Shown: piece after piece, positions 5,647-51,995 of the stretch
Layout of the letters: every line of letters begins with the position of its first letter
Numbering within the stretch: position 1 is the first letter of the stretch
Origin: Nitrosopumilus sp.
GTDB lineage: Archaea > Thermoproteota > Nitrososphaeria > Nitrososphaerales > Nitrosopumilaceae
Assembly (NCBI GenBank): GCA_965223425.1
Contig: OZ245003.1
Location: forward strand, 2,176,001-2,240,000
Reading direction: 5' to 3'
Length of the DNA stretch: 64,000 nt
Made by a program: the position numbers and the translations under genes
Notes under the pieces: model-generated
What the model was told of the DNA's origin: nothing
What the model saw: the letters and a program-made list of their open reading frames with translations, nothing else
Databases searched by the model: none

Positions 5647-6189
5647 CAACATAGTCAAATAAAAAGTGATGTGATTATATACAAATTCAGCATTATTTTG
5701 TTTTATCTTGTACAAAAAGTAGTTCACCCCTTCTCCGAGTATGCAAGGTCGATAAAGAGCAGGCGCACCGACCTTACTGTCACTGGAAACAAGGGTGTGT
5801 GGGTCTGGAAGAAAAGGCTAGGAAGATACACAAGCCTGGAGCATCCAGACACAGTAGATGAAAATGTACTCTTGACTCGCCCGGGATCCAAGTTTTAGAC
5901 CAACTGTGAAAACAATTCGGACAGAAAAAGCAATTGATCAGTGCCCCTGTCATTCCTTATGCTTTACCAAAAAGATCAACTGGGACACCGTCTTGATACG
6001 GCAGGCAAGGCATTTAAAATGTTGCCTGACATTGTAGACGCGGTAGGCCTCAGCTTCTCTGGGAGACACAACGCGCTATACGGCATGGAGGATTTTATAC
6101 GGGCAGTCATATCGATGTGCAAGTCAGGCTCGTATGCCTCCGGCATCACACAGATGCTCTCAGTACGCCACGCCGCGAGCCGCATACCG

Positions 6190-7320
6190 TAGTGACTAGG
6201 ATAAATAACCGCTCATCCTTGTTATCCTGACCTCACGTCTATACAGCATTGTCCATATGGATTCCTTCATCACCTTTGTGCTTTCATACATCACGTTTGC
6301 AGTGGCCCTTCTTAACAGCCTCCACTGCCCCTCCGTGGTATTCAGCTCCGGGGTGTACACGGGCAAGTAAACAAGGACTATGTCGCCGTCATACGAGTCG
6401 ACAAAATCATTGACCATCTTTGACTTGTGGTATGATGCGTTATCAAGAAAGACGATGATCTTGCCGTGCTTGAGATGCAGGTGTCCGAGCATGTCCACAA
6501 AGCTGTAGCTGTTGGCCTTGGCATAGAACCTGCAGTCAAAGCCGCCGTCGTACAGCGCCCCAAACGAGTAGAACCTTTTGCGCGACAGGCTGACTGGAGT
6601 GGTGACGGGCCTGCCCTTGAGGTACCACCCGTTCTTGGTATTCCACCCAATGATAAAGGAGGCCTCATCAACTGTAATCACCGTATGGTCTGGATGGCTC
6701 CGGATTATCTCCCCTGCTTTTTTTTTAAACTCTTTTTTCTCTGATTCTGAGGCTGACTTGGGTGCTTTGGACGCGGCTTTCTGCACGAAAAGCCCATCCT
6801 GTGCAGTATGTCATATATGCTGACAGTGGCATACTGCACGCCGAACTTTTTTCTGATGTGTACGGCCAGCAGCGGTGCCGTCCACACTCCGGACTCGAAC
6901 CCGCAACTGCGCGGGCCTGCCAGCAGGTCTGCGCGCAGCTGTTCTATCTGTTCCGGATCGAGCTTGTTTGGCGCGCCTTTGTTTTTGATGTCGTACCTGC
7001 CGCAGGTGCCAAGCTGTGCGGCGCGCACAAGCCAGTCCCGTACTGTAGAGTATGACCTGTTGAGGGCCCTGCATATCTGGCGTATGGACATGCCCTCCTT
7101 GCGCATGGCATATGCCAGCAGCCTTGCTGCGGCCCTGGGATCTGTCTCCTTTTTTTGCATGCTGCGCAGGCGCGCACTGGAGACGCCGGACAGGAACCTT
7201 CTGTCTGCCGGTATTGCAGAATTGTTGTATTTCATGCGGATTCTGCCATACACTGGGATCTAGATCTTGTGGTTGAATAATGTTGTCTGTTTTGTGAGCG
7301 ATTGTTAATCCAATTCACTA
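6190..7320 (-). mobile_element. IS630-family element, copy 1
   Basis: Ends TAGTGACTAGGAT / ATCCAATTCACTA; near-identical to 42007..43138. Confidence 0.92.
6196..7253 (-). CDS. IS630 transposase split into HTH (6705-7253) and DDE (6196-6786) frames
   Basis: HTH domain, then VDEA...LDNASYH...YTPELN; 1-nt deletion relative to copy 2. Confidence 0.85.
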
Positions 7321-8437
7321 CGTCATCGGTGTGGGTTCTGGGGAAGATAAGGGACGCATGTTCTGACAGGCACATCATGGAGAAGAGGTGCCGGGAGATG
7401 GTGCGCAAGACCGTACTGTGCGCAACACAGGCAGGCCTCCTGCGCAGAACCCCGCATGTCATGGCAATTGACACGCACAACATACCGCGGTACGACAGGA
7501 GCTCCGATACCAGAGAAAAACAGCTGGTGCGCTCAAAACACAGGAATGGAACCACCAGGTTTGAGGGATACGCCACGATGCAGTGCGTGGACAGGCCCAA
7601 CCTTGATGTGGCATGCAGGCCCCTCAAAAAGGGGTACAAACCTGCCTGTATCGTGCGTGATCTGCTGCAGGACTGCGCCGATGTGGGGGTTCGGTGCAAA
7701 CTGCTGCTGCTGCTTGACCGCGGATTCTTTTCAAGCGATGTCACAAGGGAGATCCGGCAGGCAGATCACAGATTCATCATGCCGGCATCAAAAACTTTTG
7801 CAATAAAAAGGGCAATACTGGATCACCACGACGGCAAGAGGGATGCAGTCTCCACGCACACGCTTATGACACGCAAGCACAAGCAGGGCCAGTCGTTTCG
7901 GCTGGTCATTGTGGCAAAAAAGAAGGGAGATAGGGGGGGGATGGGATTCGGAGAACACACCGGACAGATATTTGGCGTATGCCACCAACCTTGACTGCCG
8001 TAACCCGCTCTTTGAGACAGAAGGAATTCCAGAGGAGTACAAAAAGAGGCGGGGCATAGAAACGGGGTACCGGGACGCAGAGAGATCAAGGCCCAAAACC
8101 ACCAGCCAGAACGCAGTCATCAGAATATTTCTGTTCTTTATGGCACTTGTAATGTATAATTTGTGGGTAATATCGGCTGCAAGATCCAGGAGATGCAATG
8201 GAGGGCGGCGTGATGTTGCCGTTATTCCTCTGCTGATAATGTTCGAGCTGATGGAAAAATTTTCTGCTGATGTGATTCCTGGCAGGGGGATTTGGCCAGA
8301 ACAGCCGTCTGCCGGCTAGTACATTTTCATCTACTGATGAAATACACGATAATCAAAGCCACTTTTCACATTTTTAACAACATAGTAAAATCATTCATCA
8401 GATTAAAATAATTAGTTTAACAAGTTTCTAAACATCA

Positions 8438-9203: not shown

Positions 9204-9491
9204 ATGGCAGAATATAGAACTCATATGAAAATTATTGGCGACATTCTAGCAACAACTCGAGACGATCTACAAGATGCAGATGGGGCATCAGTTACTTATC
9301 TAATCAGAAAGGCAAACATTTCTCATTCCAGAATTTCGAGAATTTTGAAAACACTAGTGTCACAAGGACTATTAGAACAAGTAGACACTCAAGGTTCAAA
9401 CAAATACAGAATTAGTCAATCGGGTAGAGAATTTCTTCAGGCATATTATACATTTACAAATTTTGCAGATAACTTTGGACTAAGTATCTAG
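9204..9491 (+). CDS. Winged-helix transcriptional regulator (DUF4364/ArnR1-like)
   Basis: YRTHMKII.DIL...KANISHSR...YRISQSGREFL; paralog at 27876. Confidence 0.85.
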   Translation: MAEYRTHMKIIGDILATTRDDLQDADGASVTYLIRKANISHSRISRILKTLVSQGLLEQVDTQGSNKYRISQSGREFLQAYYTFTNFADNFGLSI

Positions 9492-9568: not shown

Positions 9569-9726
9569 GCTTTACAAATGAAAATTCATCATTATTAAAA
9601 ACTTGTTCAAAAGTAAAGTATGAGGTCACCTCCCCTACACTATCTTTGAGACATCATCTGCCAGTGGTTTCGGGGTTGTCGCCAAATTCACATCAAGCTG
9701 CCACCACCTGAATATTTCGCCTTGCG

Positions 9727-11406
9727 GTAACAATTCGGATTTCTGGAGTGAATTTTGGGGTGCCGAAAGAGATAAAGATCACGGCTAGAACACACATGTG
9801 ATGCCGGCGGAGTTTGATCCTACCCGCGTAGACTGGGACAACCAAGACACAAACTATCTCTTTAAGCATTTCAAATCAGTGTTTGATCAGGAGAGAAGAG
9901 AGAGAAAGTCGTTGGAAGAAAAAGTCAAGCAGCAAAATGATACAATCAAGCAGCAAAATGACACAATCAGGCAGCTGGAAGAAGAGAACAGGCAGCTAAG
10001 GACAGGATCCGCAACCCAAAAGCCGGCCAGGAAGGCAAGAAGCTACAATGTGAGAAAATTCAAGGAATATCCGCGGCCAAAAAGCGACAAAAATACCGGG
10101 ATGCGCGGCAGGGAACAGAAGACTGACATCCCAGTCACAGATCACAGGGACGCAGACATTTCATATTGTCCCGGATGCGGTCTCAGACTTGCAGACAGCA
10201 GTACCGATTACGACCGTGACATAACAGACATACAGGACGGCAGGGCGCGCCGCATCAGATGGAGCGTGGCGCGCCGCTACTGCAGGAACTGTAAAACGTC
10301 ACACTCCGCACGCATACCCGGCACCCTGTCCGGCTCTCAGTATGGAATCACGATAATCTCCCAGGTAGTGCTGATGCGTTGCATGGGCATACCGTTTGAA
10401 AGGATAACTGACCTATTTGACATGATATACGGGATACAAATCCCGGGTTCAACGCTGGTCTCCATGTGCGAAAAGGCGGCATGCCAGATGAGGCCCGTCT
10501 ACGACGGACTGCTTGCAGGGATGATTCACAGGGCTCGCGCCATATACGGGGACGAGACCGGATGGTTTCTCAACGGACTGCATTACTGGGTATGGGTTCT
10601 AGTCTCCACGCACGGCGTGATATACCACATATCATCGACGCGCAGCAAGCAGGTGGCAGAGGCACTGGCAGGTGAGTTTGACGGAATTGTAATATCGGAC
10701 TCGTATCTGGCATGGAGTGGAGTAGGCCTGCTACACCAAAAGTGCCTGCTGCACTATTTCAGGGACATGTACAAGACCCTGGAGGAGAGCTGCAGTAACG
10801 AGTTTGCCACATTCTTCAAGAGACTGCACGGCATACTCAAGGATGCCATAGACGCACGGGAAAAGTACGACAGTAATGCGGTTCCAGCAGACGTCACACA
10901 AAGGCTGCAGGACAGGATAGACGCGCTGGCACGGCAGTCATACGACGATGCGGACTGCCGGAGGTACGCAAAAAGGCTCAAAAGGGAGGGGGATCAGCTG
11001 CTGACGTTTCTAGAGCACGGCGTGGAATACCACAACAACAAAAGCGAGAGGGCCCTGAGGATGTTTGCCACCATGCGCAAGGTCAGCTACGGCAGCAGAT
11101 CCGAGAAGGGCATGTACATCACAGAGACGCTGGCAAGCATATACGCCACATGCAGGATGCGCGGTGCAAACCCGTACAGTTTTATCCTGGAATGCCTTGA
11201 CGGCCGCAGAACCGACGGGATTCCCATGGCTTGTCCGGACAAAGCTGCGGCAGTAAAGTGTGTCTGTGCCTAAAACGCCGCAACATCGCGCACACATGTA
11301 TGGGGCTGAGCGGCGTTTTTGCCGATTTTGAACTGTCACTATATAACGGGGCGTGATTTGTCTGTCAAAATAAATCCCCCACAACTCCACAAATCCGAAT
11401 AGTTAC
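9727..11406 (+). mobile_element. IS66-family single-ORF element (ISBst12-group-like)
   Basis: IR GTAAC(A/T)ATTCGGATTT; 8-bp TSD GCCTTGCG at 9719-9726 and 11407-11414. Confidence 0.92.
9798..11273 (+). CDS. IS66-family transposase (TnpC-like)
   Basis: Coiled coil, CPGCG...CRNC zinc finger, GDETGW, ISDSY, HQKCLLH, NNKSERALR. Confidence 0.92.
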   Translation: MMPAEFDPTRVDWDNQDTNYLFKHFKSVFDQERRERKSLEEKVKQQNDTIKQQNDTIRQLEEENRQLRTGSATQKPARKARSYNVRKFKEYPRPKSDKNTGMRGREQKTDIPVTDHRDADISYCPGCGLRLADSSTDYDRDITDIQDGRARRIRWSVARRYCRNCKTSHSARIPGTLSGSQYGITIISQVVLMRCMGIPFERITDLFDMIYGIQIPGSTLVSMCEKAACQMRPVYDGLLAGMIHRARAIYGDETGWFLNGLHYWVWVLVSTHGVIYHISSTRSKQVAEALAGEFDGIVISDSYLAWSGVGLLHQKCLLHYFRDMYKTLEESCSNEFATFFKRLHGILKDAIDAREKYDSNAVPADVTQRLQDRIDALARQSYDDADCRRYAKRLKREGDQLLTFLEHGVEYHNNKSERALRMFATMRKVSYGSRSEKGMYITETLASIYATCRMRGANPYSFILECLDGRRTDGIPMACPDKAAAVKCVCA

Positions 11407-12233
11407 GCCTTGCGGCGCACTCTAGACGGTTTAGCACCTCAAGGTTCCATCCTATTGTCTTGCACAGTCCAAACCGCCTTCTTGTGGATGTCTTTCTGAA
11501 CCTGCACAGCAGCCGGTGGCCCTCTGTCTCCTCTGCTCCAAATATTCCCTCTATCATGCCTCGTTTTTTGTAGATCTCCCCGTCAAACAGCCCTGCGGCC
11601 TTTTTCCTGAACTTTTTTGTTCTGTTCACGGCATTGCCCCTCTGCTTTATGTTCGGGGTCATGCCGGCACCAAAGACAAGCCTGCAGTTCCTATCAGAAT
11701 CATACCCCCTGTCTGCGTTGAACCTGCCTGCAAAGGCAATGCCTGTCTTTTTGATCTTCTTTAGCAGCGAGGCAAAGACTGTAGTGTCTGCCATCCTGTT
11801 GGATGTGATGCGGCAGGAGAGTATGACCTGCAGGCCCAGTACCGAGGCCACGTGCCATTTCAGGTATTTCTTTTGACGCTTTGCCTCCGGTTTGTGCCTG
11901 TTTCTGGCCTTTTTTTGCACCCTTTCATACCTGTCAGTGGCAACGCCGCTGCTGTCTGATGCCAGCGTGAGATCAGAGGCATCAAATCCTGCAAGGCACG
12001 ATGCTGCCGTGACGGCAATCATGTCCTCAAGCCACGCAACAGGAATCTTTTGCATGAACCTGGCAATGGTGCTGTGATCCGGCAGGGGTTCGTTCCACGG
12101 CATCCTCAGCAGGGCTGCAAGATTCTCCATGTCCCTGAATGTAAAGTCAAGGCACACCGTGAGTATGCAGAGAAATGCAAGCTTGTTTTTGTCATGTACC
12201 GGTTTGCGCCCCGCACCAGACCTTCTGGCATGT

Positions 12234-13602
12234 CAGTAGTTCCCAGATGTAGATTTACCGCAACCGCAACTGGCATCGGTTCTACTTGCCTCGATCATTG
12301 ACAAACAACTCGTTTCTGCTTGTAATGTACACGATAAACAACGCCATGGTGAGTTTTTTTCCCGCAGAAGACACTCTTCCATGCCTCTTTCCCGCATCAA
12401 GGCAGAACCTGGCAATCCTCCACAGGTTGTACAGCAGCAGCGGCAGGTAAAACATCAGCAGCCTCACAGACAGGGAGTTGCTGCATGTCCTGCCCATGAT
12501 CTCCTTTATGACGCGAAACCCCGTCTCGATGCCCCATCTCTTGCGGTACTGCTCCGGTATGATGCCTGTCATGGCTCTGGCGCTCCTGATGGGAATGTTT
12601 GTTGCAAACGCAATGTATTGCTCCTCCCCCTCCTCTTCCCCCTCCTTTTTCTTCTTCTTCTTCCTGTCTCTTTTGACAATTACAAGGTTGTAGGTCACAG
12701 TTACGCCGTCTTTGTTGGTCATTGACTGCTGCGATACCTGGCTTGCCTTTCCGTCCTTGTACATCTTGACTATCCTCTTGATCTTGGAGTTCATGATGAC
12801 AGGCATGATGTAGCGGCACCCGCCCTTTCCTGCCTCTGTCATGCAGTCAACGTTGTAAAAGGCGCGGTCGTACAGGAACACAGTCTTTGAGTGTGCGCCC
12901 CCTCTGAGGATTTTCGTGCGTGTTTTGGCTATAAAATCGGCCAGTTTTTCCTTTGCCGGCAGCAGCTGCGATTCCAGGACAATCTGCGAGGAGTCCCTGC
13001 CGACTCCGTGCACTGCGACATACGAGAGAAACGTGGATGTTCCTGCCCTTGGACGCGACTTTCTTGTATGCTCCTGCAGCTGCTCCCCATGGTATGGTAT
13101 GTCCGTAACGTCTATTGCAATGGCGTCGATGTCCTGCAGCATTCCTGCACGGCAGGCGTGCCGCACCGTGCGTGCTAATGTCTTTGCACACCAGGCCTGC
13201 ACGTCTGCCGGTTTGACGCCACGGACTGCAGACATGACCAGGTCTGCATCAGGCGTACGTGCACCCGTGTCTTGAAGCCTGTTGTGCCGTACGAGGGATT
13301 CTACAAACGTGTTTCTCTCAGACGCCTTGATTAGCACGTCCAGTATGTCATTGCATCCGTATACGGCGTTGTGCCTCTCAGACATTGGCATGCCAAGCTT
13401 TTGAAACGACGAGCGCAAGATTTTAAACCGGTTTGATGTTATATTGTACTGGCGTGCGATCAGTTCGTCATGTAATTCGACTTTCATGACATATTGCACG
13501 CCGTAGCCTAATCTGGATCTTTGCATTGCAGTTATGCGGTAACGCACCGGCATCTGGGCATAAACCTACATCTGGGCACAAATCTACATCTGGGAACTAC
13601 TG
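12234..13602 (-). mobile_element. ISH3-family IS
   Basis: 23-bp IR CAGTAGTTCCCAGATGTAGATTT; 4-bp TSD ATGT at 12230-12233 and 13603-13606; 18-bp subterminal repeats at 13551-13595. Confidence 0.92.
12282..13553 (-). CDS. ISH3-family transposase
   Basis: AIDVTDIPY, YDRAFY and YRKRWGIETGFR motifs. Confidence 0.92.
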   Translation of the reverse strand: MPVRYRITAMQRSRLGYGVQYVMKVELHDELIARQYNITSNRFKILRSSFQKLGMPMSERHNAVYGCNDILDVLIKASERNTFVESLVRHNRLQDTGARTPDADLVMSAVRGVKPADVQAWCAKTLARTVRHACRAGMLQDIDAIAIDVTDIPYHGEQLQEHTRKSRPRAGTSTFLSYVAVHGVGRDSSQIVLESQLLPAKEKLADFIAKTRTKILRGGAHSKTVFLYDRAFYNVDCMTEAGKGGCRYIMPVIMNSKIKRIVKMYKDGKASQVSQQSMTNKDGVTVTYNLVIVKRDRKKKKKKEGEEEGEEQYIAFATNIPIRSARAMTGIIPEQYRKRWGIETGFRVIKEIMGRTCSNSLSVRLLMFYLPLLLYNLWRIARFCLDAGKRHGRVSSAGKKLTMALFIVYITSRNELFVNDRGK

Positions 13603-13954
13603 ATGTACGGGACACGGATTTTTCACAATCAAAGAAACTATATGGGACGTGAGAAAATCCAGTTCTTGGGTGTGGGCATCGTGATAGTACTTCCAGTACT
13701 GATCACGTCTCTTATGACAATTCATTAGAGAACTCACATCCTCCCTGATCAATATGCGTGAAAAATCACAAAATTAGATCATTTGGTCGAATTTGGCGAC
13801 AACCCCAGTGGTTTCTATGATTATCTGAACTTACTGAAATTTGCTACAGATGCCACCGTTTCAGCCTGCCTGTGCCAAAAAGATGATCAGATTCACGGCG
13901 GGCAGGTCTTTCCTGCCTGTTGTCTGCGCCGTGCACGCCAGCATTGCCGGACGG

Positions 13955-16900
13955 CTATTGCGTCTGGTATATGTCGCCGTACTCCGCATCGCGCAGCTGC
14001 TCCATGAGCGCCGTGTGCCCTGCCATCTTTGCGGCAAACGCGTCGCACAGCCTGTTGTTGACGTCAGTGCAGGCAGTGCCGGTGCTGTGTGCGGGGCCCT
14101 CAAGGTAGTGCCACGTGCCGTACGAGTTTTTCGTCCAGGTGTAACCTAACTGGTCAGTCCACACGTCATTTATCTTGTCTGTCCGCACCAGCTCGTGGGT
14201 TATGATATCAGACTGGGAGGAGTACTTTGTCTGTAGCAGGATGACCATTGGCGGGTTAAGCGACTCCCCTGATATTGCCAGCCCGTCGTTCATGTAGTGG
14301 TTTGTGACGCGGCGCTTGGAGTCCACTGCCTGGATCATGAATGGCTCGTCGTATGTCTGCTCCAGGAACAGGACGCCAGATATCAGGACGGAGATGCAGT
14401 CGTAGTCGTTGTTGCTGTTGTTGTTGTTCTCCTCTCCTTTTGTGGCCGTCGTCGCTGCTGCTCCCGGCTTGACATCGGACATGCACGCCGCAGAATCAAC
14501 AGAGGCTGTGATGCCTGACGCGTCTATTACGGAGCTTGTGCTTCCGCGGCGGACATCATGCGATATTCCTGCCACCTCGTAGGTGGAGTCTGTGGTGTAG
14601 TTGCGTCCCAGATGGACGGTTATGGAGGCCTCTGCGTCAGAGAACGGGGATCCCACTGAGGGCACGCCAAAGCCTACTGCCACCCTGTCAAGGCCCTTTT
14701 CTGCGTATGCCTTTAGCGCAAAGTCGTGCGTGGAGCCGGTCCGTATCTCTGCGCGCTGATAGTCGACGTGGTATGCCAGCACGTCGTGGCACGACCCGTC
14801 CATGGAGTAGCCGCAGGAGACCAGCTTCTGGTTGGTGCTCCAAGAGTTTCCAAAGGTTGGGCGGGTCTTGTGCTCGTTGTCGTCATCGCTGGTGGTGTCA
14901 GGCGCAGAAAGGTTCAGGACAACCCGGAGGTATACGGTGTTGTTGTCTGAGTCAGTACACGAGTATAGGATGGACTGACTGTCTTCTGTGGTTGGATCAT
15001 ACAGGTTCTCATTCTCACTCACGGGCGTAATGTCGCCGTCCTCCGGGTCAGAGCACGTCACGCCCAGATCGGCAAGATCAAAGCCGGTATCGCGGTCCAG
15101 CGTGATGCTGTCAGGCCCGCTTGAGTCGGGGTTTACCGTATACGAGATGACGGGAGGCTCGTTGGGTGGAGGTGGCGTGGTGCCGTCCGGTGGCTGGTTT
15201 GTGTCAGTTATGGTCATGTTGTGCTGTGCAGAGCCTGTGGCGCCGTAGTCGTCAGTTACCTTCAGCGTGATGAGCAGAGAAGTGTCTTCTGCGACCTGGG
15301 GCGCCGTAAATGATGCAGTTTCCTGGTTGCCGCCGGTGATGGTTACTGCCGGGTTGCCGGCAGTCCAGTTGTATGATTGTATGGTGCCGTCAGTGTCAGC
15401 AGAGCCGGTCCCGTCAAGGGTTACCTGCGTTCCCTCTGCTGCCCGGGAAGGCGCGCTGATTGACGCAGTGGGGGGAACGTTGCCGTCCGGTGGTGGTGGT
15501 GGTGGCATTATCGCAGGTTCCGTAACAGTTACGGTCCTGGTTACCGGATCCGGGCTGTTGTACCCGTCTGAGCAGGCATACACCACATCGTACTGGCCTG
15601 CTGCATCCGTGTTCACCGCATCAAGGCCGCTGACTGTGACGGTAATGGGACGGCCAGAGTCAGTGCAGGTTGCCCCGTCATCTGTGTATGTGTCGCCCAC
15701 TGTCAGCGATACGGATGACAAGCCGTTAAGGGAAAGCACGGGTGTCACGGTATCCTCCACATGGACTGCTCTGGTCACGTTTTGCGCGGCAAGCCCGTGT
15801 TGGTCTGTACACGAGTAGGTGTACAAGTACGGAGCTAACGGGATCGTGTCTGTATCCACATTGGAGGAGTTGGTAAGCGTCACGTCATCGCCGTCAGGAT
15901 CGGCGCAGGCTGCCCCGGCATCTGTATACGTGACGTACCTTTCTGCAGTTGCAGGATCCTCGCCGTTTAGGGTGATTGTTGGGGGCCGGTTTACGTCATT
16001 TATGGTCATGGTGTGGTTTGCAGAGCCGGTAGCGCCGTCATCATCAGTTACCACCAGCTTGATGGCCAGCGTGGTGTCCTCTGTGACCGGGGGTGCCGTA
16101 AATGATGCTTCTGCCTTGTCAGCATCAGTTATTGTGATGGACGTGTTGTTGGCAGTCCACGCGTAGAGTGATATGGTGCCGTCATTATCTGTCGAGCCGG
16201 TTCCGTTAAGTGATACCGTTGCTCCCTCTGCTGCCCGGACAGGCGCGCTGATTCTCGCAGTCGGTGGGACGTTGACGTCCGGTAGCGTTGGCGTGACTGT
16301 TGAGGGCTGGTTTATTTCTGTGATCTGTAGGTCAACGGCCTCTGCTATCTTGTTGCCAGAAGCGTCGGCGACTGCGCCATGCCCTATGTCAAGCTGCGGC
16401 GGCGCGGGCGAGAGCTCCGAGTATGCCGTCTTTTGCGCGGAGTCTAGGGTGGCCGTGACGGTTTTACCCACGGTGGATCTTGTGGTTATATCAGAGAATG
16501 TTATGCCCGCCGTGTCTGAGCCTGTTGCGCGGATGTGGATCTTCGTGTAGTTAGTCTCAGTTGCAACCAGTTCCTCGCTGAATGTCATCGTTATGACGCC
16601 CGAGTCTTTGTTGTACGTGGCCGAAGAGAACAGAAGCGCCGCACTGTCAGACGTTGCATTGATGCTGTAGGACGGGCCTATGTTGTACTCGCTCACACGG
16701 TCGCGCAGACTGTCCATCATGAACATCTTGGTGCCGTCAGGCGAGAAGGCGATGTCTTCCGGCACGTTGTCCTGGTTTCGGACCCGGGTGGACTTGTCGC
16801 TGTAGGAGGCAGTGGTGATATCAAAGGCTGTGGAGAGCGCGTACTGGCGCACGGCGCCGAACTCATCGCCCAGCATGAACATCTTGGTGCCGTCAGGCGA

Positions 16901-19900
16901 GAAGGCGATGTTTGCCGGCAGATTGTCCTGGTCTCTGACCACTAAGAACTTGCTGCTGTAGGAGGCGGTGCTGATATCAAAGGCTGTGGAGAGCGCGTAC
17001 TGGCGCACGGCGTCGTGCTCAGTGCCCAGCATGAACATCTTGGTGCCGTCAGGCGAGAAGGCGATGCCTATCGGATCGTTGTCCTGGTCTTTGACCACTA
17101 AGAACTTGCTGCTGTAGGAGCCGGTGCTGACATCAAAGGGTGTGGAGAGCGCGTACTGGCGCACGGCGTCGTGCTGAGTGCCCATCATGAACATCTTGGT
17201 GCCGTCAGGCGAGAAGGCGATGCCTATCTGCGCGTTGTCCTGGCCTTCGACCACTAAGAACTTGCTGCTGTAGGAGGCGGTGCTGACATCAAAGGGTGTG
17301 GAGAGCGCGTACTGGCGCACGGCGCCGTGCTGAGTGCCCATCATGAACATCTTGGTGCCGTCAGGCGAGAAGGCGATGCCTATCGGCTTGTTGTCCTGTG
17401 ACGCGATGAAGGATCTCAAGAACGATGTGCCGTTGGTCAGGTCAAAGGGCTCCGTTATGAAGTTACCTGACCTGTCAGATATCGCGGTGGCGGCTATCTC
17501 TAGGTGCGGGCTGTTCATCGCGATGACTGCCTGTTTGTCTGCTTCTGCCAGCCTGAGGGTAATTGAGCTGGCGGTGACCCCGACAACGGAGTCGCCGGAC
17601 AGGGCCACGACACCCGTGGTGGATCCGGGCTCCCTTATGTATAACTTGAATTTGTTTAGGCTGGAGGAGTCAATGCTCTCGTTGAAGGTGAGGGTCAGTT
17701 GGCCGGTGTCCTTGTCTAGTCCTGCCGAGACCAACCTAGGCCTCATGGAATCCGTAACAGTTACAGTCTGGGTTACCGGATCCGCGCTGTTGTACCCGTC
17801 TGAGCAAGTATACACCACATTGTACTTGGCGGCAACAGCCGTGTTCACCGTATCGCCACTGACTGTGTGAACAATGGTATACTGAAGGCGAGTAAAGAAG
17901 GTGGAAGGTTCACCCAGACCGTCGAGAACGGGACGGCCCGAGTCAACGCATCTTGCCCCTTCCGGGTACGTGTCGCCCACTGCCACTGATACGGATGCCG
18001 AACCGTGAAGGGTAATCACAGGTTTTATGGTATCCACCACAGAGACTGATCTGACCACGTCTTGCGCGGCAAGCCCGTGTTGGTCCGTACACGAGTAGGT
18101 GTACGAGTATGGAGTGCCTGGGATTGTGTCCGTGTCCACAGTGGAGGTGCTGGTAAGCGTTGTATCATCGCCGTGAGGATCGGTGCAGACTGCCCCGGCA
18201 TCTTCATACTCGAAGTACCTTTCTGCCGTTGCAGGGTTGGTGCCGATCAGGGTGATTGTCGGGGGCCGGTTTTCTGTAGCCAAGATGCTGACTATCTGGA
18301 CGCCGTCGTCAACGTTTGCAGCTACCAGGGCGTAGGTGCTGGAGCCCATCTTTACCGTGGTGATGCCCAGTGCGCCGTCAAGCACGTCAAATCTCTCAGT
18401 TTTCCCGTCGACTGTGACGGTTTCCCCGTCAGTAATGGAGGCAGTCGGGAAGGGGGTTGTGGGATTGGTAATGTCGATTATCTGGACGCCGTCGTCAGCG
18501 TTTGCAGTTACCAGGGCGTAGGTGCTGTTGCCTATCTTTACCGTGGTGATGCCCCGTGCGCCGTTAAGCTCGTCAAATCTCTCAGTTTCCCCGTCAGTAA
18601 TGGAGGCAGTCGGGAAGGGGGTTGCGGGATTGGTAATGTCGATTATCTGGACGCCGTTGTCATCTTTTGCTGCAACCAGGGCGTAGGTACTGGAGTCTAT
18701 CTCTACCGTGGTAATGTCCCATGCGCCGTCAAGCTCGTCAAATGTCTTGTTTGTACCGCCGACTGGGACGGTTTCCCCGTCAGTAATGGAGGCAGTCGGG
18801 AAGGGGGTTGCGGGATTGGTAATGTTGATTATCTGGACGCCGTCGTCAGCGTTTGCAGCTACCAGGGCGTAGGTGCTGTTGCCTATCTTTACCGTGGTGA
18901 TGCCCAGTGCGCCGTCAAGCACGTCAAATGTCTTGTTTGTACCGCCGACTGGGACGGTTTTCCCGTCAGTAATGGAGGCAGTCGGGAAGGGGGTTGCGGG
19001 ATTGGTAATGTCGATTATCTGGACGCCGTCGTCAGCGTTTGCTGCAACCAGGGCGTAGGTACTGGAGTCTATCTCTACTGTGGTAATGTCCCATGCGCCG
19101 TCAAGCACGTCAAATGTCTTGTTTGTACCGCCGACTGGGACGGTTTCCCCGTCAGTAATGGAGGCAGTCGGGAAGGGGGTTGTGGGATTGGTAATGTCGA
19201 TTATCTGGACGCCGTCGTCACGGAATGATGAGACCAGGGCGTAGGTACTGGAGTCTATCTCTACCGTGGTGATGCCCCGTGCGCCGTCAAGCTCGTCAAA
19301 TGTCTTGTTTGTACCGCCGACTGGGACGGTTTCCCCGTCAGTAATGGAGGCAGTCGGGAAGGGGGTTGCGGGATTGGTAATGTCGATTATCTGGACGCCG
19401 TCGTCAGCGTTTGCTGCAACCAGGGCGTAGGTACTGGAGTCTATCTCTACCGTGGTGATGCCCCGTGCGCCGTCAAGCTCGTCAAATGTCTTGTTTGTAC
19501 CGCCGACTGGGACGGTTTCCCCGTCAGTAATGGAGGTGATCGGAGCAACGTCGAGGTACTGTAGTGGTTTTACGTCAGTTATGGTGATGTTTTCTACCTG
19601 AAATACAGGTGAGATGCCGTAAAACGGATGCGTGTCACTTTTTAGATCCTGTATAGGACTGGTGAGCGGGCCATTATCAGCATTGTTTGGAAGTCCAGCT
19701 CGCACCATGTCAGCGCCAAGGGGTGCGGTGCCGTGTTTTGTCCCATCTGCATTAGAACCAGTAAACACGGCTGATGTAGCATCAGAACCAAACAGGAATA
19801 CGTTTCCGTTCTCGTCCCGCGCGGATCTCTCCTCATTCCATGATCCGTCGTAAAAGTCCTGATAGTTGTCTGCCACCTTTGCGCCGCCTAGCCAGTAGAT

Positions 19901-20281
19901 TGGGGGGCCCTTGTCTGTACTGTTATAGGTGGTACCGGTGTGGTCGCGCGCACTGACTGCACCTGTACTGCCCACCACCTTGAATGACGAGCTGTGTTCT
20001 TGGATGTCTGTATGGCCTGCCGCTACGAGGCCTTGGATGTACGTGTCATATACTGTAATGTCAGTAGGTACGGCGTTGTGTTTAGTTGATGTCGCGATAA
20101 GCAGCCTGAACTGGTCCCCCTCACCAAGGCCCGAGGGTATCAGGCCCCAGTCTGTCGGAACAGACGTTGCATCCGTCGCAGCATCTGCAAGGGGGATGCA
20201 AAGTGGAATCAAAAGAACAAGTGCCGCTATTGCTACTGCTGTCGTTGTTGCAGGCAACGGCGGTTTTATCAATCGTTGCAA
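13955..20281 (-). CDS. Giant secreted/surface protein (2108 aa): signal peptide, lectin-like N-domain, LVIVD-type propeller, DUF5011/Ig-like, second propeller, PKD-like modules, C-terminal domain
   Basis: Hydrophobic N-terminal signal; seven ~62-aa repeats (YALVAA..DDGVQIIDITNP); 52-aa IAFSPDGTKMF repeats; PTITL.G...GA.C.D...Y.CTD Ig repeats. Confidence 0.9.
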   Translation of the reverse strand: MQRLIKPPLPATTTAVAIAALVLLIPLCIPLADAATDATSVPTDWGLIPSGLGEGDQFRLLIATSTKHNAVPTDITVYDTYIQGLVAAGHTDIQEHSSSFKVVGSTGAVSARDHTGTTYNSTDKGPPIYWLGGAKVADNYQDFYDGSWNEERSARDENGNVFLFGSDATSAVFTGSNADGTKHGTAPLGADMVRAGLPNNADNGPLTSPIQDLKSDTHPFYGISPVFQVENITITDVKPLQYLDVAPITSITDGETVPVGGTNKTFDELDGARGITTVEIDSSTYALVAANADDGVQIIDITNPATPFPTASITDGETVPVGGTNKTFDELDGARGITTVEIDSSTYALVSSFRDDGVQIIDITNPTTPFPTASITDGETVPVGGTNKTFDVLDGAWDITTVEIDSSTYALVAANADDGVQIIDITNPATPFPTASITDGKTVPVGGTNKTFDVLDGALGITTVKIGNSTYALVAANADDGVQIINITNPATPFPTASITDGETVPVGGTNKTFDELDGAWDITTVEIDSSTYALVAAKDDNGVQIIDITNPATPFPTASITDGETERFDELNGARGITTVKIGNSTYALVTANADDGVQIIDITNPTTPFPTASITDGETVTVDGKTERFDVLDGALGITTVKMGSSTYALVAANVDDGVQIVSILATENRPPTITLIGTNPATAERYFEYEDAGAVCTDPHGDDTTLTSTSTVDTDTIPGTPYSYTYSCTDQHGLAAQDVVRSVSVVDTIKPVITLHGSASVSVAVGDTYPEGARCVDSGRPVLDGLGEPSTFFTRLQYTIVHTVSGDTVNTAVAAKYNVVYTCSDGYNSADPVTQTVTVTDSMRPRLVSAGLDKDTGQLTLTFNESIDSSSLNKFKLYIREPGSTTGVVALSGDSVVGVTASSITLRLAEADKQAVIAMNSPHLEIAATAISDRSGNFITEPFDLTNGTSFLRSFIASQDNKPIGIAFSPDGTKMFMMGTQHGAVRQYALSTPFDVSTASYSSKFLVVEGQDNAQIGIAFSPDGTKMFMMGTQHDAVRQYALSTPFDVSTGSYSSKFLVVKDQDNDPIGIAFSPDGTKMFMLGTEHDAVRQYALSTAFDISTASYSSKFLVVRDQDNLPANIAFSPDGTKMFMLGDEFGAVRQYALSTAFDITTASYSDKSTRVRNQDNVPEDIAFSPDGTKMFMMDSLRDRVSEYNIGPSYSINATSDSAALLFSSATYNKDSGVITMTFSEELVATETNYTKIHIRATGSDTAGITFSDITTRSTVGKTVTATLDSAQKTAYSELSPAPPQLDIGHGAVADASGNKIAEAVDLQITEINQPSTVTPTLPDVNVPPTARISAPVRAAEGATVSLNGTGSTDNDGTISLYAWTANNTSITITDADKAEASFTAPPVTEDTTLAIKLVVTDDDGATGSANHTMTINDVNRPPTITLNGEDPATAERYVTYTDAGAACADPDGDDVTLTNSSNVDTDTIPLAPYLYTYSCTDQHGLAAQNVTRAVHVEDTVTPVLSLNGLSSVSLTVGDTYTDDGATCTDSGRPITVTVSGLDAVNTDAAGQYDVVYACSDGYNSPDPVTRTVTVTEPAIMPPPPPPDGNVPPTASISAPSRAAEGTQVTLDGTGSADTDGTIQSYNWTAGNPAVTITGGNQETASFTAPQVAEDTSLLITLKVTDDYGATGSAQHNMTITDTNQPPDGTTPPPPNEPPVISYTVNPDSSGPDSITLDRDTGFDLADLGVTCSDPEDGDITPVSENENLYDPTTEDSQSILYSCTDSDNNTVYLRVVLNLSAPDTTSDDDNEHKTRPTFGNSWSTNQKLVSCGYSMDGSCHDVLAYHVDYQRAEIRTGSTHDFALKAYAEKGLDRVAVGFGVPSVGSPFSDAEASITVHLGRNYTTDSTYEVAGISHDVRRGSTSSVIDASGITASVDSAACMSDVKPGAAATTATKGEENNNNSNNDYDCISVLISGVLFLEQTYDEPFMIQAVDSKRRVTNHYMNDGLAISGESLNPPMVILLQTKYSSQSDIITHELVRTDKINDVWTDQLGYTWTKNSYGTWHYLEGPAHSTGTACTDVNNRLCDAFAAKMAGHTALMEQLRDAEYGDIYQTQ
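16678..17397 (-). repeat. About 4.5 x 156-bp tandem coding repeat (beta-propeller blades)
   Basis: Near-identical ATGAACATCTTGGTGCCGTCAGGCGAGAAGGCGATG units every 156 bp. Confidence 0.9.
18285..19545 (-). repeat. 7 x ~186-bp tandem coding repeat (LVIVD-like blades)
   Basis: Near-identical units; one carries an in-frame 8-aa shortening. Confidence 0.9.
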
Positions 20282-20500
20282 CTGTCAGACTCTCCTGTCC
20301 TCTCCTTCTCCCAATACCATTACTGCTGCTAATCCTTCCTCCACCCCCCCCCCCCCCCGATGTCAGGCAACATTGTGGCAGGGAAGGCAAGATTACTGCA
20401 GGAATGACAGAGGCGCAATACGGCTAGCGACGGCTTCTTGAAAGCAGATAACTGAAAGGTGTGACTCAACAACTTGATGCTTTTGTTTTGATATTTATGT
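20282..20500 (-). promoter_or_regulatory. Conserved long 5' leader of giant gene 1 with G15 tract; TATA-like box near 20492-20499
   Basis: Near-identical to 51763..51975; C15 on + strand at 20344-20358; GGAGAG SD-like motif before the TTG start. Confidence 0.7.
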
Positions 20501-20515
20501 ATTTTTTTCAGATTC

Positions 20516-20655
20516 CAGTCTTCCCAGAAGTACTTCGTAGAGATTACCAAGAGGAGAAACTTTCTACTACAAAGAATCACACGCACCCAGAATCTGTAGA
20601 ATCACGGATTACTGGTTATAGTTCAGAGGAAAACTTGGTACTTCTGGGAAGACTG
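20516..20655. mobile_element. 140-bp MITE-like unit A with ISH3-type ends
   Basis: 18-bp perfect IR CAGTCTTCCCAGAAGTAC, similar to the IR of the ISH3 at 12234. Confidence 0.75.
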
Positions 20656-20660
20656 AACCC

Positions 20661-20756
20661 CAGTTAAGCGAAATGCCTCAAATCTGAGATCAGATCAGCG
20701 GTTTGGTTCTGCACATGAGAGTGGTTTCCTTAATCAGGGTACATTTCGCTTAGCTG
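20661..20756. mobile_element. 96-bp MITE-like unit B with ISH3-type ends
   Basis: IR CAGTTAAGCGAAATG / CATTTCGCTTAGCTG (14 of 15 match). Confidence 0.65.
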
Positions 20757-20765
20757 ACTTGCAGC

Positions 20766-20856
20766 GTATGAGGTCACCTGTTCCCCTATCCAAGCACGAG
20801 TTTGTATCATCAGAAACATTTCCACGCCTGACTTCAGGGGGCAGGTGACCTCATAC
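20766..20856. mobile_element. 91-bp MITE-like unit C forming the right end of the cargo transposon
   Basis: 15-bp perfect IR GTATGAGGTCACCTG / CAGGTGACCTCATAC. Confidence 0.75.
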
Positions 20857-20863
20857 AAAGTAA

Positions 20864-21493
20864 ATGGTAATAAAACAAAAAAGAATAGAATATGTGTTGA
20901 AAGTAAGTTGTAACGAAAAAGGAATTGAAAAAGCATTTCAAATTATTGATCAGGGGGGAATTGCAGTTTTTCCAACAGATACGGTGTATGGAATAGGATG
21001 TAACCCATACAACAAAGATTCAATAAAAAAAATTTACGAAATTAAATCCAGAGATATATCAAAACCATTACCAGTTTTAGCATATTCAAAAGAGGTTGCA
21101 GAACAAATTGTCTTTTTTGATGAATTTTCTAAAAAAATTGTAGAAAAATTTTGGCCTGGATCATTGACAATTATTTTGAAACTAAAAGATCAAAATTTAA
21201 AAGAATCATTAAATTTAATTGATAAAATTGCTATAAGAGTTCCCAACCATGACTGTACATTAGAATTATTGAAAAAGTGTAATTTTCTGGTAGGTACTAG
21301 TGCAAATATTTCAGGACAGCCACCATTTACAGATCCTGATGAGTGTTCGAATAATCTTCAAAAATATGATATTCTGGTAGATGGTGGCATAATCGAAAGT
21401 AAAACAGAATCAACAATAATTGAAATAGAAAATGACGAAATCAAAATCATTCGAGAAGGTTCATTGAGTAGAGAAGAAATCTTAGAAAAATGA
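20864..21493 (+). CDS. sua5: L-threonylcarbamoyladenylate synthase (Sua5/TsaC); true start probably ~20894-20897
   Basis: FPTDTVYGIGC, IYEIKSR, FWPGSLT and TSANISG motifs. Confidence 0.93.
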   Translation: MVIKQKRIEYVLKVSCNEKGIEKAFQIIDQGGIAVFPTDTVYGIGCNPYNKDSIKKIYEIKSRDISKPLPVLAYSKEVAEQIVFFDEFSKKIVEKFWPGSLTIILKLKDQNLKESLNLIDKIAIRVPNHDCTLELLKKCNFLVGTSANISGQPPFTDPDECSNNLQKYDILVDGGIIESKTESTIIEIENDEIKIIREGSLSREEILEK

Positions 21494-39068: not shown

Positions 39069-41396
39069 ATGGAACCAAAAATATCAGAAAAAGCATGGAA
39101 TCCAGAGTTAGAAAAAAAAATACTCAAGCAATGGGAGGAAGATAAAATTTATGACTTTGTTCCACAAGAAAGCAATTTTACCATAGATACGCCGCCACCT
39201 TATCCTTCAGGCAGGCCATGGCACATTGGAGCGGCAGCACATTATTCACAGATTGATATGATTGCAAGAACGGCAAGAATGGCGGGGAAAAATGTCTATT
39301 TTCCAATAGGAATCGACAGAAACGGACTCCCGGTAGAGCTGTACACTGAAAAAAAACACAAAATCAGAATGAGGGAGACAGACAGGGGAGAATTTCTGAA
39401 TCTATGTAAAGAAGCATTAGACGGTTTGGAAGATGAAATGATCCTAATTATGAAAAACCTGGGAATTAGCGGGGATTTTTCAAACTACTACAGAACAGAT
39501 TCAGAAGAATACAGAACGCTAACACAATCAACATTCATCGAGTTATGGAAAAAAGATCAGGTGTATCTAGCAAACAGACCTAACAACTATGATTGGGTGT
39601 CAGGGACAACAATTGCAGATGCAGAGATAACATACGAAGATCGGGCGACAAAGTTAGTCTATATGAAATTCAAAATAAAAGACACAGATCAGGAAATTAT
39701 TATTGCAAGTACGAGACCCGAACTAATTTGTGCATGTAAAACAGTTATTGTGAATCCAGAAGACAGGAGATACACAAAACATATCGGAAAAAAGATAATT
39801 GTTCCAATAATGAATGCGGAAGTAGAACTAAGAACACATCATTCTGCTCAACAAGAATTCGGATCAGGGGCAGTAATGGTATGTAGTTATGGTGATCAAA
39901 ACGACGTAGCATTATTCAGAGAGTTAGGATTAGAAGAAATCGTTGCAATTGGATTAGATGGTAAAATGACAGAAGTTGCAGGGGAATATGCAGGATTAAA
40001 GCCAAAACAGGCAAGAACAAGGATCACCGAAGATCTAGAAACAAACGGATTTGTAGAAAAAATTGAAGACATTGTTCACAGAACCCCGGTTTCAGAGAGA
40101 AGTAAAAATCCAATTGAGATCATTCCAATGGAGGAATATTATATTAAACAAAAAGAATCAATTGGAAAAATGAAAAAGTTGGGACAGGAAATTACATTTC
40201 ATCCTAGCATGCACAAACAAATTCTAATGAATTGGCTGGAATCTATCAACATTGACTGGCCCATATCAAGAAGAAGATACTATGGTACTGAAATCCCAAT
40301 ATGGTACTGCAAAAATTGCTCAGAGCCTTACGTTCCTGAGCCAGGAAAGTACTACAAACCATGGAATGAAAAATGCCCTATTACTAATTGCCCAAAATGT
40401 GGTTCCGGCGAATTTGTTGGCGAGGAGAGAACATTTGACACGTGGATGGATTCTAGTGTATCACCACTTTTTGTTAGTAAGTTTAACAAAGATGATGGCT
40501 TTTTCAAAAAGGTCTATCCTGCTTCAATCAGACCTCAAGCAAAAGATATTGTTAGAACATGGTTGTATTATACACTTTTGAGATGTGAGCAGCTCACGGG
40601 AAAGAAACCATGGTCTGAAGCTTGGATTATGGGATATGGCCTTGATGAGAAAGGGACGAAGATGAGCAAGAGCAAGGGAAATGCGATAGATCCTTTGCCG
40701 GTCATTGAAAAACTAGGTGCGGACACTTTTAGATTTTGGAGCGCAAGCGAAACTAATCACGGATATGACTTTAGGTGCAACGAACAAAAAATCGAATCTA
40801 CAAAAAAATTCCTCAGCAAGTTGTGGAATGTGTCAAGATTCCTGTCTGGTTTTCCTGTAATTGAGTCAGGAACGCCTAGTGGCGCATCAGACAGGTGGAT
40901 ACTAGCAGAGCTGGACTGCCTGGTAAAAGAATGCAACAGGGGATATAACGAATACAACTTTTTCATTCCTGCAATTGCAATTAGAGAGTTTACGTGGAAT
41001 GTATTTGCAGCCCACTATATCGAAATGATCAAAGCAAGGGCTTGTGGAATTAATTTTTCTGATGAGGAAAGAGACGGGGCGATCTATACCCTGCACAAAA
41101 CATTATCAACAATTTTAAAATTATTAGCGCCGATAACCCCGTTTATCACTGAACACCTCTGGAGAATCCTGTATTCAGAACAAAGCATTCACAAGCAAAA
41201 GCGTGTGGAAGCTGAAAATATCGAGGCTCAGGGCAACATCACAAAAGAGATTACGGGGTTTAATTCCAAAGTATGGAACAAGAAAAGATCCCGGAGTTTG
41301 TCACTGAAAGATCCAATTGAAATTGAAATTCCTGAAAGCATGGAACCGTTCAAAAAAGACCTAAAAGCTATGCATAATTTGGCAGACTGGGCCTAA
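39069..41396 (+). CDS. valS: Valine--tRNA ligase
   Basis: DTPPPYPSG..HIG, DWPISRRRYYG and KMSKSKGN motifs. Confidence 0.95.
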   Translation: MEPKISEKAWNPELEKKILKQWEEDKIYDFVPQESNFTIDTPPPYPSGRPWHIGAAAHYSQIDMIARTARMAGKNVYFPIGIDRNGLPVELYTEKKHKIRMRETDRGEFLNLCKEALDGLEDEMILIMKNLGISGDFSNYYRTDSEEYRTLTQSTFIELWKKDQVYLANRPNNYDWVSGTTIADAEITYEDRATKLVYMKFKIKDTDQEIIIASTRPELICACKTVIVNPEDRRYTKHIGKKIIVPIMNAEVELRTHHSAQQEFGSGAVMVCSYGDQNDVALFRELGLEEIVAIGLDGKMTEVAGEYAGLKPKQARTRITEDLETNGFVEKIEDIVHRTPVSERSKNPIEIIPMEEYYIKQKESIGKMKKLGQEITFHPSMHKQILMNWLESINIDWPISRRRYYGTEIPIWYCKNCSEPYVPEPGKYYKPWNEKCPITNCPKCGSGEFVGEERTFDTWMDSSVSPLFVSKFNKDDGFFKKVYPASIRPQAKDIVRTWLYYTLLRCEQLTGKKPWSEAWIMGYGLDEKGTKMSKSKGNAIDPLPVIEKLGADTFRFWSASETNHGYDFRCNEQKIESTKKFLSKLWNVSRFLSGFPVIESGTPSGASDRWILAELDCLVKECNRGYNEYNFFIPAIAIREFTWNVFAAHYIEMIKARACGINFSDEERDGAIYTLHKTLSTILKLLAPITPFITEHLWRILYSEQSIHKQKRVEAENIEAQGNITKEITGFNSKVWNKKRSRSLSLKDPIEIEIPESMEPFKKDLKAMHNLADWA

Positions 41397-41485
41397 CATG
41401 CCTGCAAAATGCCATTTGTGATCAGATATCAGGCTCTTCTGCAAAGATAGTCACTGTTTTGTTCCCTCTCTTTCCCCTTTTCCTA

Positions 41486-41750
41486 CTACTTGCCATACAC
41501 GTCAGCACCGTACTCCGCATCGCGCAGCTGCTCCATGAGCGCCGTGTGCCCTGCCATCTTTTCGGCAAACGCGTTGCACAGCCTGTTGTTGACGTCAGTG
41601 CAGGCAGTGCCGGTGCTGTGTGCGGGACCCTCAAGGTAGTACCACGTGCCGTACGAGTTTTTCGTCCAGGTGTAACCGAACTGGTCAGTCCACACGTCGC
41701 TTGTCTTGTATGTCCGCACCAGCTCGTGGGTTACGGTGTCAGATGGGAGG
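41486..41750 (-). pseudogene. Orphan 3' end of a giant-gene-1-type surface protein
   Basis: High nucleotide identity to 13955-14220 (THELVRT...DVWTDQ.GYTWTKNSYGTW...EQLRDAEYG). Confidence 0.85.
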
Positions 41751-42006
41751 ACGGCTTGTTTCTTTGGCATTAAATTCAGGATATGGCAAGAGGGTTCCCG
41801 AATCATTCTCATTTGAGATGTGTCATCGCCTCCAGGCACATTGAAGACAACAATACTGTCATGACCGACTGCGAAAGCTATAACACCAAGCCCTGGCCGC
41901 AATTGCAGGATCCGGATACGTTGAAGATTCTCCAATCTCACCTGGCAGTTAGCCGTGCAGCTGGCCGTTCTGTCCTTGATTGGGCGGGGTGTCGTTGTTA
42001 TTGGCG

Positions 42007-43138: not shown

Positions 43139-43143
43139 CGTCC

Positions 43144-51762: not shown

Positions 51763-51975
51763 CTGTCAGACTCTCCTGTCCTCTTCTTCTTCTCTTACCA
51801 TTACTGCTGCTAATCCTTCCACCCCCCCCCCCGATGTCAGGCAACATTGTGGCAGGGAAGGCAAGACTACAGCAGGAATGACAGAGGCGCAATACGGCTA
51901 GCGACGGCTTCTTGAAAGCAGATAACTGAAAGGTGTGGTTCAACAACAAGATGTTTTTAAGATCGTATTTATAAA
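51763..51975 (-). promoter_or_regulatory. Conserved long 5' leader of giant gene 2 with G11 tract; TTTATAAATA box near 51966-51975
   Basis: Near-identical to 20282-20500; C11 on + strand at 51822-51832. Confidence 0.7.
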
Positions 51976-51995
51976 TTTGGTTTGGCTTGAGATCG

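Follow-up and report, generated by a model that had tools for sequence, protein, structure and literature searches.

A probable transposase-less cargo transposon with IS66-type ends that carries a giant surface-protein gene in Nitrosopumilus

We analysed a 64,000-nt stretch of a Nitrosopumilus sp. genome (assembly GCA_965223425.1, contig OZ245003.1, positions 2,176,001 to 2,240,000), here called the window; positions are those of the window unless a contig is named. The genome encodes an archaeal AmoA. Upstream of sua5, a GC-rich block at 9618-20856 is very probably a non-autonomous cargo transposon of a single-ORF (open reading frame) lineage of the IS66 family of insertion sequences (ISs). 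It has paired inverted ends and an 8-bp target-site duplication but no transposase of its own, and its cargo is one giant gene whose product is a predicted surface protein. Related genomes have an empty site at this position. A first-pass annotation had proposed a transposase-less unit of this kind, and most of its description stands, with the corrections given below.

Ends, duplication and borders of the unit

The 14-nt end GTATGAGGTCACCT was found exactly three times in a scan of the window. Two copies bound the unit, at 9618-9631 (+) and 20843-20856 (-). The third, at 20766-20779 (+), was absent from the first-pass annotation. At up to two mismatches the window held three matches against 0.32 expected, and none of 100 shuffles gave three. 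The outer arms are perfect over 14 nt and 94% complementary over 18 nt, a C-run then follows each of them, and the 8-bp AAAGTAAA abuts both outer ends (9610-9617 and 20857-20864). The perfect 14-bp terminal inverted repeats with C-runs and the exact 8-bp duplication reported earlier are thus real.

The unit spans 11,239 bp. Its GC content is 0.50-0.60 (approximately 55% overall) compared with 0.28-0.37 in the flanks (approximately 33%), and composition shifts abruptly at both borders, matching the earlier description of a GC-rich block in an AT-rich spacer before sua5. The right-hand neighbour is indeed Sua5/YciO/YrdC (20864-21493; PF01300, E 2e-53), and a winged-helix (wHTH) protein lies on the left (9204-9491). 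The insertion is placed some 30 bp upstream of the probable sua5 start.

The insertion site is empty in related genomes

Whether relatives have an empty site with a single copy of the 8-mer had been set beforehand as the decisive check. A search of 40 relatives with the left flank gave matches in 23 of the 24 same-genus genomes. We compared 11 same-genus loci (L009-L019), with flank identities of 76-87%. The wHTH and sua5 flanks were contiguous at one copy of the 8-mer in all 11. This copy was exactly AAAGTAAA in eight loci and AATGTAAA or AATGAAAA, with one or two substitutions, in the remaining three. In the two genomes with longer synteny, G021 and G007, the flanks likewise overlapped by 8 bp. 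The block 9618-20856 is thus an insertion into the wHTH-sua5 spacer.

The sharp jump in composition at both borders could raise the suspicion of an assembly chimera, in which DNA of a GC-rich organism was joined into an AT-rich genome, or of repeats that coincide by chance. The assembly has an estimated contamination of 2.12%, and its second contig differs in composition (47% GC). Such an artefact is hardly credible, however. The borders are exact transposon junctions with an 8-bp duplication that occurs only once where relatives have the empty site, the ISs nested in the unit have their own duplications and also occur in 7-40 copies over the same chromosome, and the shuffles described above did not reproduce the three ends. 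In four public runs (two samples from two studies, the source sample possibly among them) contigs spanned both junctions with zero differences.

No joint skipping 9618-20856 and no circle junction was found in the contigs of these four runs, which cannot reveal rare forms. Two joints in the contigs skip IS1 or IS3, two of the nested ISs. Other IS2 copies account for both. No RNA data were among the public runs listed.

Nested insertions and anatomy of the residual unit

Features of the unit are collected in Table 1. All three transposase genes inside it belong to nested ISs that arrived later, each with a duplication of its own (9, 8 and 2 bp); the 2-bp duplication of IS3 was deduced by comparing uninterrupted IS2 copies. 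The earlier view that the transposases are later arrivals with their own inverted repeats and duplications therefore holds, but the layout required correction: IS1 and IS3 are nested in IS2. IS1 is also an IS66-family element. Its ends differ from those of the unit, starting GTAACAA where the 14-18-nt unit ends start GTATGAG, and its transposase shares no more than 25% identity with the one encoded by the IS identified below as the partner of the unit.

Table 1. Features of the unit and its target site, in window positions.
Feature	Positions	Strand	Basis or remarks
Left target-site duplication AAAGTAAA	9610-9617		Single copy at the empty site in 11/11 relatives' loci, 8 exact
Left terminal inverted repeat, solo IS66-type end	9618-9635	+	14 nt perfect, 18 nt 94%, C-run
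First part of unique left segment (resumes at 13816-13863 without IS2)	9636-9671		No other genomic copy; 9663-9671 is the left IS2 duplication AGTGGTTTC
IS2, IS5-like, approximately 20 genomic copies	9672-13806		18-nt perfect inverted ends; 9-bp duplication AGTGGTTTC; transposase ORF 11339-12157 (-)
IS1 inside IS2, IS66-family	9727-11406	+	Ends GTAACAATTCGG...; 8-bp duplication GCCTTGCG; 491-aa transposase 9798-11273, PF03050 E 7e-34
IS3 inside IS2, ISH3-like, approximately 35-40 copies	12233-13603	-	24-nt perfect inverted ends; 2-bp duplication TG; 423-aa transposase 12282-13553
Right IS2 duplication (13807-13815) and rest of unique left segment	13807-13863		No other genomic copy of the left segment
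3' flank of giant gene, holding a GC-rich hairpin	13864-13954	-	96% identical to paralogue C1:1344077-1346213; homology edge at 13864
Cargo, intact 2108-aa gene for a predicted secreted or cell-surface repeat protein	13955-20281	-	Leader, domain matches
Conserved 5' region of the giant-gene family, presumed promoter and leader, travelling with the gene	20282-20515	-	20157-20515: 8-12 other copies
MITE-B, 140 bp, older passenger	20516-20655		18-nt perfect inverted ends CAGTCTTCCCAGAAGTAC
MITE-C, 96 bp	20661-20756		Ends CAGYTAAGCGAAATG, equal to the ends of an approximately 1.25-kb IS with a PF01609 transposase
MITE-A, 91 bp, complete (two inverted ends)	20766-20856		Outer end 20839-20856 is the right end of the unit
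Right target-site duplication AAAGTAAA	20857-20864		Directly outside the MITE-A outer end

Taking out IS2 and one copy of its duplication leaves 11,239 - 4,135 - 9 = 7,095 bp. The only long ORF in this residue is 13955-20281 (-), of 2108 aa, in line with the approximately 7.1 kb and single giant gene of the first-pass annotation. From left to right, the residual unit consists of the left end, 88 bp (9632-9671 plus 13816-13863) with no second copy in the genome, the gene with its flanks and three MITEs (miniature transposable elements with inverted repeats): MITE-B, MITE-C and MITE-A. MITE-C copies are equally placed upstream of paralogues of the gene at C1:535292 and C1:2500592.

Two terminal inverted repeats had been described as bounding the unit. 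Both ends are real, but the right one belongs to a whole 91-bp MITE whilst the left is a solo end. MITE-A shares 74% identity with 93-bp MITEs from a congener. With CTTGCAGC on its left and AAAGTAAA on its right, it lacks an own duplication. Since MITE-A has none whilst the whole block does, the simplest interpretation is that a transposase paired the solo left end with the outer end of MITE-A and that all the DNA between the two was moved in one event.

The left segment (88-102 bp) was aligned to seven MITEs with ends of the unit's type (A-type), 13 IS ends, four MITE-C copies, MITE-B, MITE-D and two paralogue 3' flanks. It resembles MITE and IS ends over only approximately 18-20 nt, and beyond this point shuffle tests gave uncorrected p values of 0.03-0.9. 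We considered a decayed MITE or IS end, but the local alignments were unconvincing against shuffle controls (best p = 0.03, uncorrected for multiple comparisons, most above 0.1). An apparent 73-bp 'MITE' at the left end, seen in one alignment, was rejected. The left-end 20-mer had no matches in public genome contigs and none in metagenome contigs, two collections that possibly do not hold the window's own records.

The unit might instead have arisen in two steps, with a small element bearing these ends, such as a MITE or short IS derivative, inserting at AAAGTAAA first and the giant gene entering it later, either through recombination or gene conversion involving a MITE-flanked copy at another locus or through a second transposition. 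MITEs of this family do exist free-standing. The cargo is also a mosaic of resident paralogues (96% identity over 2.1 kb and 80-91% elsewhere), indicating that recombination among family members is active. The structure of the locus nevertheless makes two steps improbable. With three ends at the locus and a complete MITE in the right 91 bp, one resident MITE cannot supply both outer ends. The left end of the unit matches that of MITE-A for no more than 14 nt, a pattern unexpected for a crossover within one MITE. Inside the unit, no second set of ends or duplication surrounds the gene, and no MITE-C-type (C-type) end occurs at 13807-13870. Finally, an independent MITE-C-bounded unit at C1:535292-547957, described below, shows that whole-gene units move.

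A cognate insertion sequence and MITE family

Within this genome the exact end GTATGAGGTCACCT occurs only at the present locus, and four further copies have one mismatch. Three of these four start copies of one IS. The intact partner IS, C1:1529633-1531158, measures 1,526 bp. It terminates in GTATGAGTTCACCT and GTATGAATTCACCT, is flanked by the 8-bp duplication GATGATTG and contains a single ORF of 476 aa at C1:1529709-1531136; its end equals the unit end at 13 of 14 positions. The ORF matched PF03050 (DDE_Tnp_IS66) with E 1.1e-27 and 97.6 bits (cut-off 23.1). An autonomous IS66-like element with these ends, for which the first-pass annotation had suggested a search, is thus present in the genome.

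IS66 elements typically generate 8-bp duplications and have ends starting GTAA (GTAAGCG), with inverted repeats of approximately 15-30 bp. Canonical members contain three ORFs, tnpA-tnpB-tnpC. This organisation is absent from the partner IS, which has one long ORF in its 1,526 bp and fits only the single-ORF subgroup, which we take to be the ISBst12-like subgroup of IS66. With that subgroup it shares the DDE_Tnp_IS66 transposase, 8-bp duplications and GTA-starting ends. The unit, having no transposase, is an IS66 derivative rather than a member IS.

MITEs of 80 bp with these ends are also found in this genome, with their own 8-bp duplications AATAAATT and ATTCACAC. Four more 80-bp A-type MITEs (C1:1160121, 1204072, 1501880 and 1804067) are flanked by TGGCACATGG on at least one side; this common flank indicates that they lie inside a larger repeat. 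Ends occurring only as independent MITEs would have spoken against a cargo unit. Free MITEs do exist, but at the present locus the ends bracket cargo and the right MITE has no duplication.

The exact end was present in six of 151 genomes of the genus, this genome included. One congener, G159, had 22 exact ends, and 137 at up to two mismatches compared with 16 for a control. The G159 ends form ISs of approximately 1.63 kb (PF03050 transposase, E 3.7e-24) and 93-bp MITEs, and of four MITEs checked in G159 and G161, three have their own 8-bp duplication. All three exact ends of the unit have G at position 8; no other copy in this genome does, but this base is standard in G159. When a gapped end pattern was scanned over one genome per prokaryotic species, 44 of the 46 loci found were in three Nitrosopumilaceae records.

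End pairs were then surveyed in these loci, of 8 kb each, and in four G159 regions, with a filter of at least 7/8 matching flank positions. Flanks were identical at 8/8 positions for 28 pairs, comprising 20 MITEs (92-93 bp), seven ISs (1.5-1.77 kb) and one 254-bp element. The last (L146:4368-4621) has 39% GC, A-type ends and a perfect duplication GTGATTTT, and its size lies between those of the 93-bp MITEs and the IS. The first-pass annotation had taken GTA-starting ends with 8-bp duplications as typical of IS66; such duplications are present at the unit, the partner IS, the MITEs and these 28 elements. With common ends and a fixed 8-bp duplication throughout, the ends can be assigned to a single-ORF IS66-type IS lineage with MITE progeny.

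In three G159 regions (L099, L100 and L102; C1:1854573-1866909, 1154541-1162499 and 2823744-2829646) an exact-end MITE or IS lies approximately 145-220 bp from a giant repeat-protein gene. One MITE in these loci has no duplication of its own. The loci are a biased sample, chosen because a MITE or IS and a giant gene were near each other.

The cargo gene belongs to a family of giant genes

The cargo protein has a hydrophobic, signal-like N-terminal leader ending in ADA, LVIVD repeats and PD40/SGL-type beta-propeller repeats, together with three Bact_surface_Ig-like domains and PKD domains. From the leader and domains the product is predicted to be a surface protein. The intact ORF, leader and surface domains agree with the 'adhesin-like surface protein' of the first-pass annotation, in which the word adhesin remains a putative label.

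A six-frame scan of the genome identified a giant-gene family of 12 members (1484-7841 aa, GC 0.53-0.57), 11 of which have a common leader. Each other copy of 20157-20515 adjoins a paralogue. Within its mosaic, the cargo is closest to C1:1344077-1346213, where the 96% identity includes the 3' flank.

How the unit moved and where it came from

We propose that at insertion the unit was approximately 7.1 kb long, with the solo left end, approximately 88 bp of obscure origin, the giant gene with its flanks, two older MITEs and MITE-A. An IS66-family DDE transposase made elsewhere would have bound the two outer inverted ends, mobilising the unit in trans. Everything between these ends would then have been moved in one event into the wHTH-sua5 spacer, with duplication of AAAGTAAA. 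Later, the IS5-like element would have entered 45 bp inside the left end, and the IS66-like and ISH3-like elements would have entered the IS5-like element in turn.

Several observations weigh against this interpretation. The left end lacks a recognisable MITE or IS body that would account for its place beside the gene. No donor copy of the unit was found in this genome, which fits cut-and-paste transposition, loss of the donor or arrival from outside, and does not distinguish between them. The first-pass annotation had also raised the prospect of other cargos with these ends, but no further cargo-bearing pair of A-type ends was found in this genome. Nor was a cargo unit found in the 8-kb loci of other genomes, in which units larger than the loci are undetectable. 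The 476-aa ORF matched the curated IS66 model NF033517 with E 5e-45, but its 154 bits fall below the NCBIfam cut-off of 180. Lastly, the intact resident IS has one end mismatch and a transposase sharing only 36% identity with the one encoded by the exact-end IS of G159, so that any assignment of the acting transposase would be tentative.

As a variant that is compatible with movement as a cargo transposon, the unit may have been built in a higher-GC congener rich in this IS and its MITEs and then transferred horizontally, either ahead of its transposition or in the course of it. The exact end, which has no further copy in this genome, occurs 22 times in G159. The fetched G159 regions have a GC content of approximately 0.5-0.6, like the cargo, and in three of the four a MITE or IS lies within approximately 220 bp of a giant gene, although this pick was biased. 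The unit itself stands out at 55% GC against approximately 33% in its surroundings. However, GC-richness is common to all ISs and giant genes here, and base composition hence does not set the unit apart. G159, G156, G116, G101 and G161 had no close DNA match, the best being 64-91% over approximately 35-420 bp of repeats, and the G159 giant protein compared was only 30-40% identical, within repeats. The nearest relatives of the cargo are paralogues in the same genome. We consider an outside origin rather unlikely. With the position-8 G standard in G159, yet no close cargo copy there or in the other four end-bearing congeners, both the transposase and the origin of the unit are matters of inference, and either a hop within the genome or arrival from a relative would be consistent with the locus.

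Further giant-gene units are bounded by a second MITE family

A scan of the flanks of all 12 giant genes for inverted 12-mers next to direct repeats returned two units, the present one and C1:535292-547957, a 12,666-bp block with inverted MITE-C copies (ends CAGCTAAGCGAAATG) at each border and a 3912-aa paralogue inside. Neither MITE-C has its own duplication, and the outer flanks share the 5-bp TTTAA. In relatives, nine loci were fetched; in all seven that had both flanks, these were joined with a 5-bp overlap at a single TTTAA. Free-standing MITE-C copies and the cognate IS of approximately 1.25 kb (PF01609, E 4e-5, ORFs split) have 5- or 6-bp duplications. By its structure C1:535292-547957 can be classed as a full MITE-bounded composite. 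Together with the present unit, it indicates that whole giant genes were moved without a transposase of their own by two unrelated systems in one genome.

A third unit probably exists at C1:728928-739403, where a 3219-aa paralogue lies within C-type ends flanked on either side by TTGGTT. None of the nine relatives' loci has the insert, and their flanks are 2-10 bp apart, but the target is too little conserved for proof of a single copy. An 84-bp MITE with ends CCGTAGTGTCTTTG lies directly to its left.

At C1:973 lies a copy of the C1:535292-547957 unit, identical at 91.7%, with a full IS-C on one side, within a complex insertion of approximately 15 kb. No shared duplication was found there. 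The other paralogue loci inspected, C1:973 and a second GC-rich island of the window, showed no unit signature. This island (41381-52033) contains a 2872-aa paralogue at 43144-51762 (-), and a search for a bracketing inverted repeat or duplication found none. At its position G021 has a 1.9-kb stretch of 30% GC with genes for two small proteins whose N-termini are signal-like, and the island thus looks like a variable surface-protein locus.

Relation to known mobile elements

Mobile insertion cassettes consist of IS ends with passenger genes and no transposase. Along with MITEs and solo ends, they are grouped among the derivatives of ISs that are open to activation by a cognate transposase (PMC3129680). 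Examples are MIC231 of the Bacillus cereus group, mobilised in trans by IS231, and cassettes of Xanthomonas and qnrD. The unit resembles them in having IS-type ends around an unrelated passenger, no internal transposase, a duplication of the length made by its parent, a cognate IS in the genome and an empty site in relatives. Unlike MIC231-type cassettes, it has an archaeal host, an IS66-family parent, a single 6.3-kb giant gene as cargo, and a MITE and a solo end as its ends.

In bacteria, MITE-bounded composites move integrons and resistance genes, as described for Acinetobacter integrons, TIME-COMPs and IR148 with mcr-5 in PMC3934969, PMC13367494 and PMC10969869. The last, a review, lists archaeal MITEs only as such. 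As in those composites, miniature elements give the ends of the unit, a related transposase would act in trans and one duplication lies outside. The unit differs from them in its ammonia-oxidising archaeal host, in carrying no resistance gene and in having a complete MITE only at its right end, whereas C1:535292-547957 has one at each end. In bacterial terms we would, with good confidence, call the unit a mobile insertion cassette or a half-MITE-bounded pseudo-composite. A classical composite transposon was rejected, as no IS lies at either border and the inner ISs are nested and near the left end only.

For Thaumarchaeota, our literature searches yielded only a composite transposon bounded by ISs that has been proposed around amoAB on a soil fosmid, with no evidence of movement (PMC3379541). 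The two cases share a thaumarchaeal host and genes lying between copies of transposable elements. The fosmid has two full IS copies and its region is syntenic with other genomes; the present unit has transposase-less ends, a duplication and empty sites. A 2026 survey reports a Nitrosopumilus genome as having the highest IS content among archaea (PMC13343696).

Full-text searches found no published description of an archaeal cargo unit bounded by MITEs or solo ends, which does not prove that none exists. The 'possibly undescribed route' of the first-pass annotation must be narrowed: bacterial mobile insertion cassettes and MITE-bounded composites exist, and the route is undescribed at most for archaea. 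The unit is an archaeal addition to a known bacterial kind of element, and its mechanism is not new.

Its ends, its duplication and the relatives' empty sites are sequence-level proof that a thaumarchaeote contains a transposon that carries a gene but no transposase. They further indicate, together with C1:535292-547957, that 6-12-kb genes for secreted repeat proteins have changed site whole, with their upstream regions, on two or more occasions in this genome, through two different transposition systems. Such relocation is a tangible way in which giant surface proteins could multiply and be reshuffled in the large, IS-laden genomes of Nitrosopumilaceae. Of most interest is that, within one gene family, the design recurs with a second IS family. 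More tentatively, the whole 12-member family may be kept mobile by capture between MITEs that belong to two or more unrelated IS families, among them an IS66-type (8-bp duplications) and a PF01609-type (5-6-bp duplications), complete 6-12-kb genes with promoters being pasted into new sites; family and vehicles would possibly have come from higher-GC congeners in the same habitat. If true, MITE capture would be a general route of cell-surface remodelling in Nitrosopumilaceae. The 476-aa IS66-type transposase and the 14-18-nt ends form a testable pair for archaeal transposition.

Other features of the window and genome

Contig C2 (123,097 bp, 47% GC) is unlike the chromosome in composition and contains large ORFs, one of which starts like a bacterial extracytoplasmic function (ECF) sigma factor. 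The contig could represent contamination or else an extrachromosomal element. Within the window, G021 and G007 lack a 2.7-kb block at 5661-8373 (51% GC). A near-perfect direct repeat of 17 bp, TTAACAACATAGT[C/A]AAAT, lies on either side of this block; it exceeds the usual length of a transposase duplication and could be att-like, derived from an integrated element. A 1.56-kb block at 58339-59899 (47% GC), missing from G021, is probably another IS.

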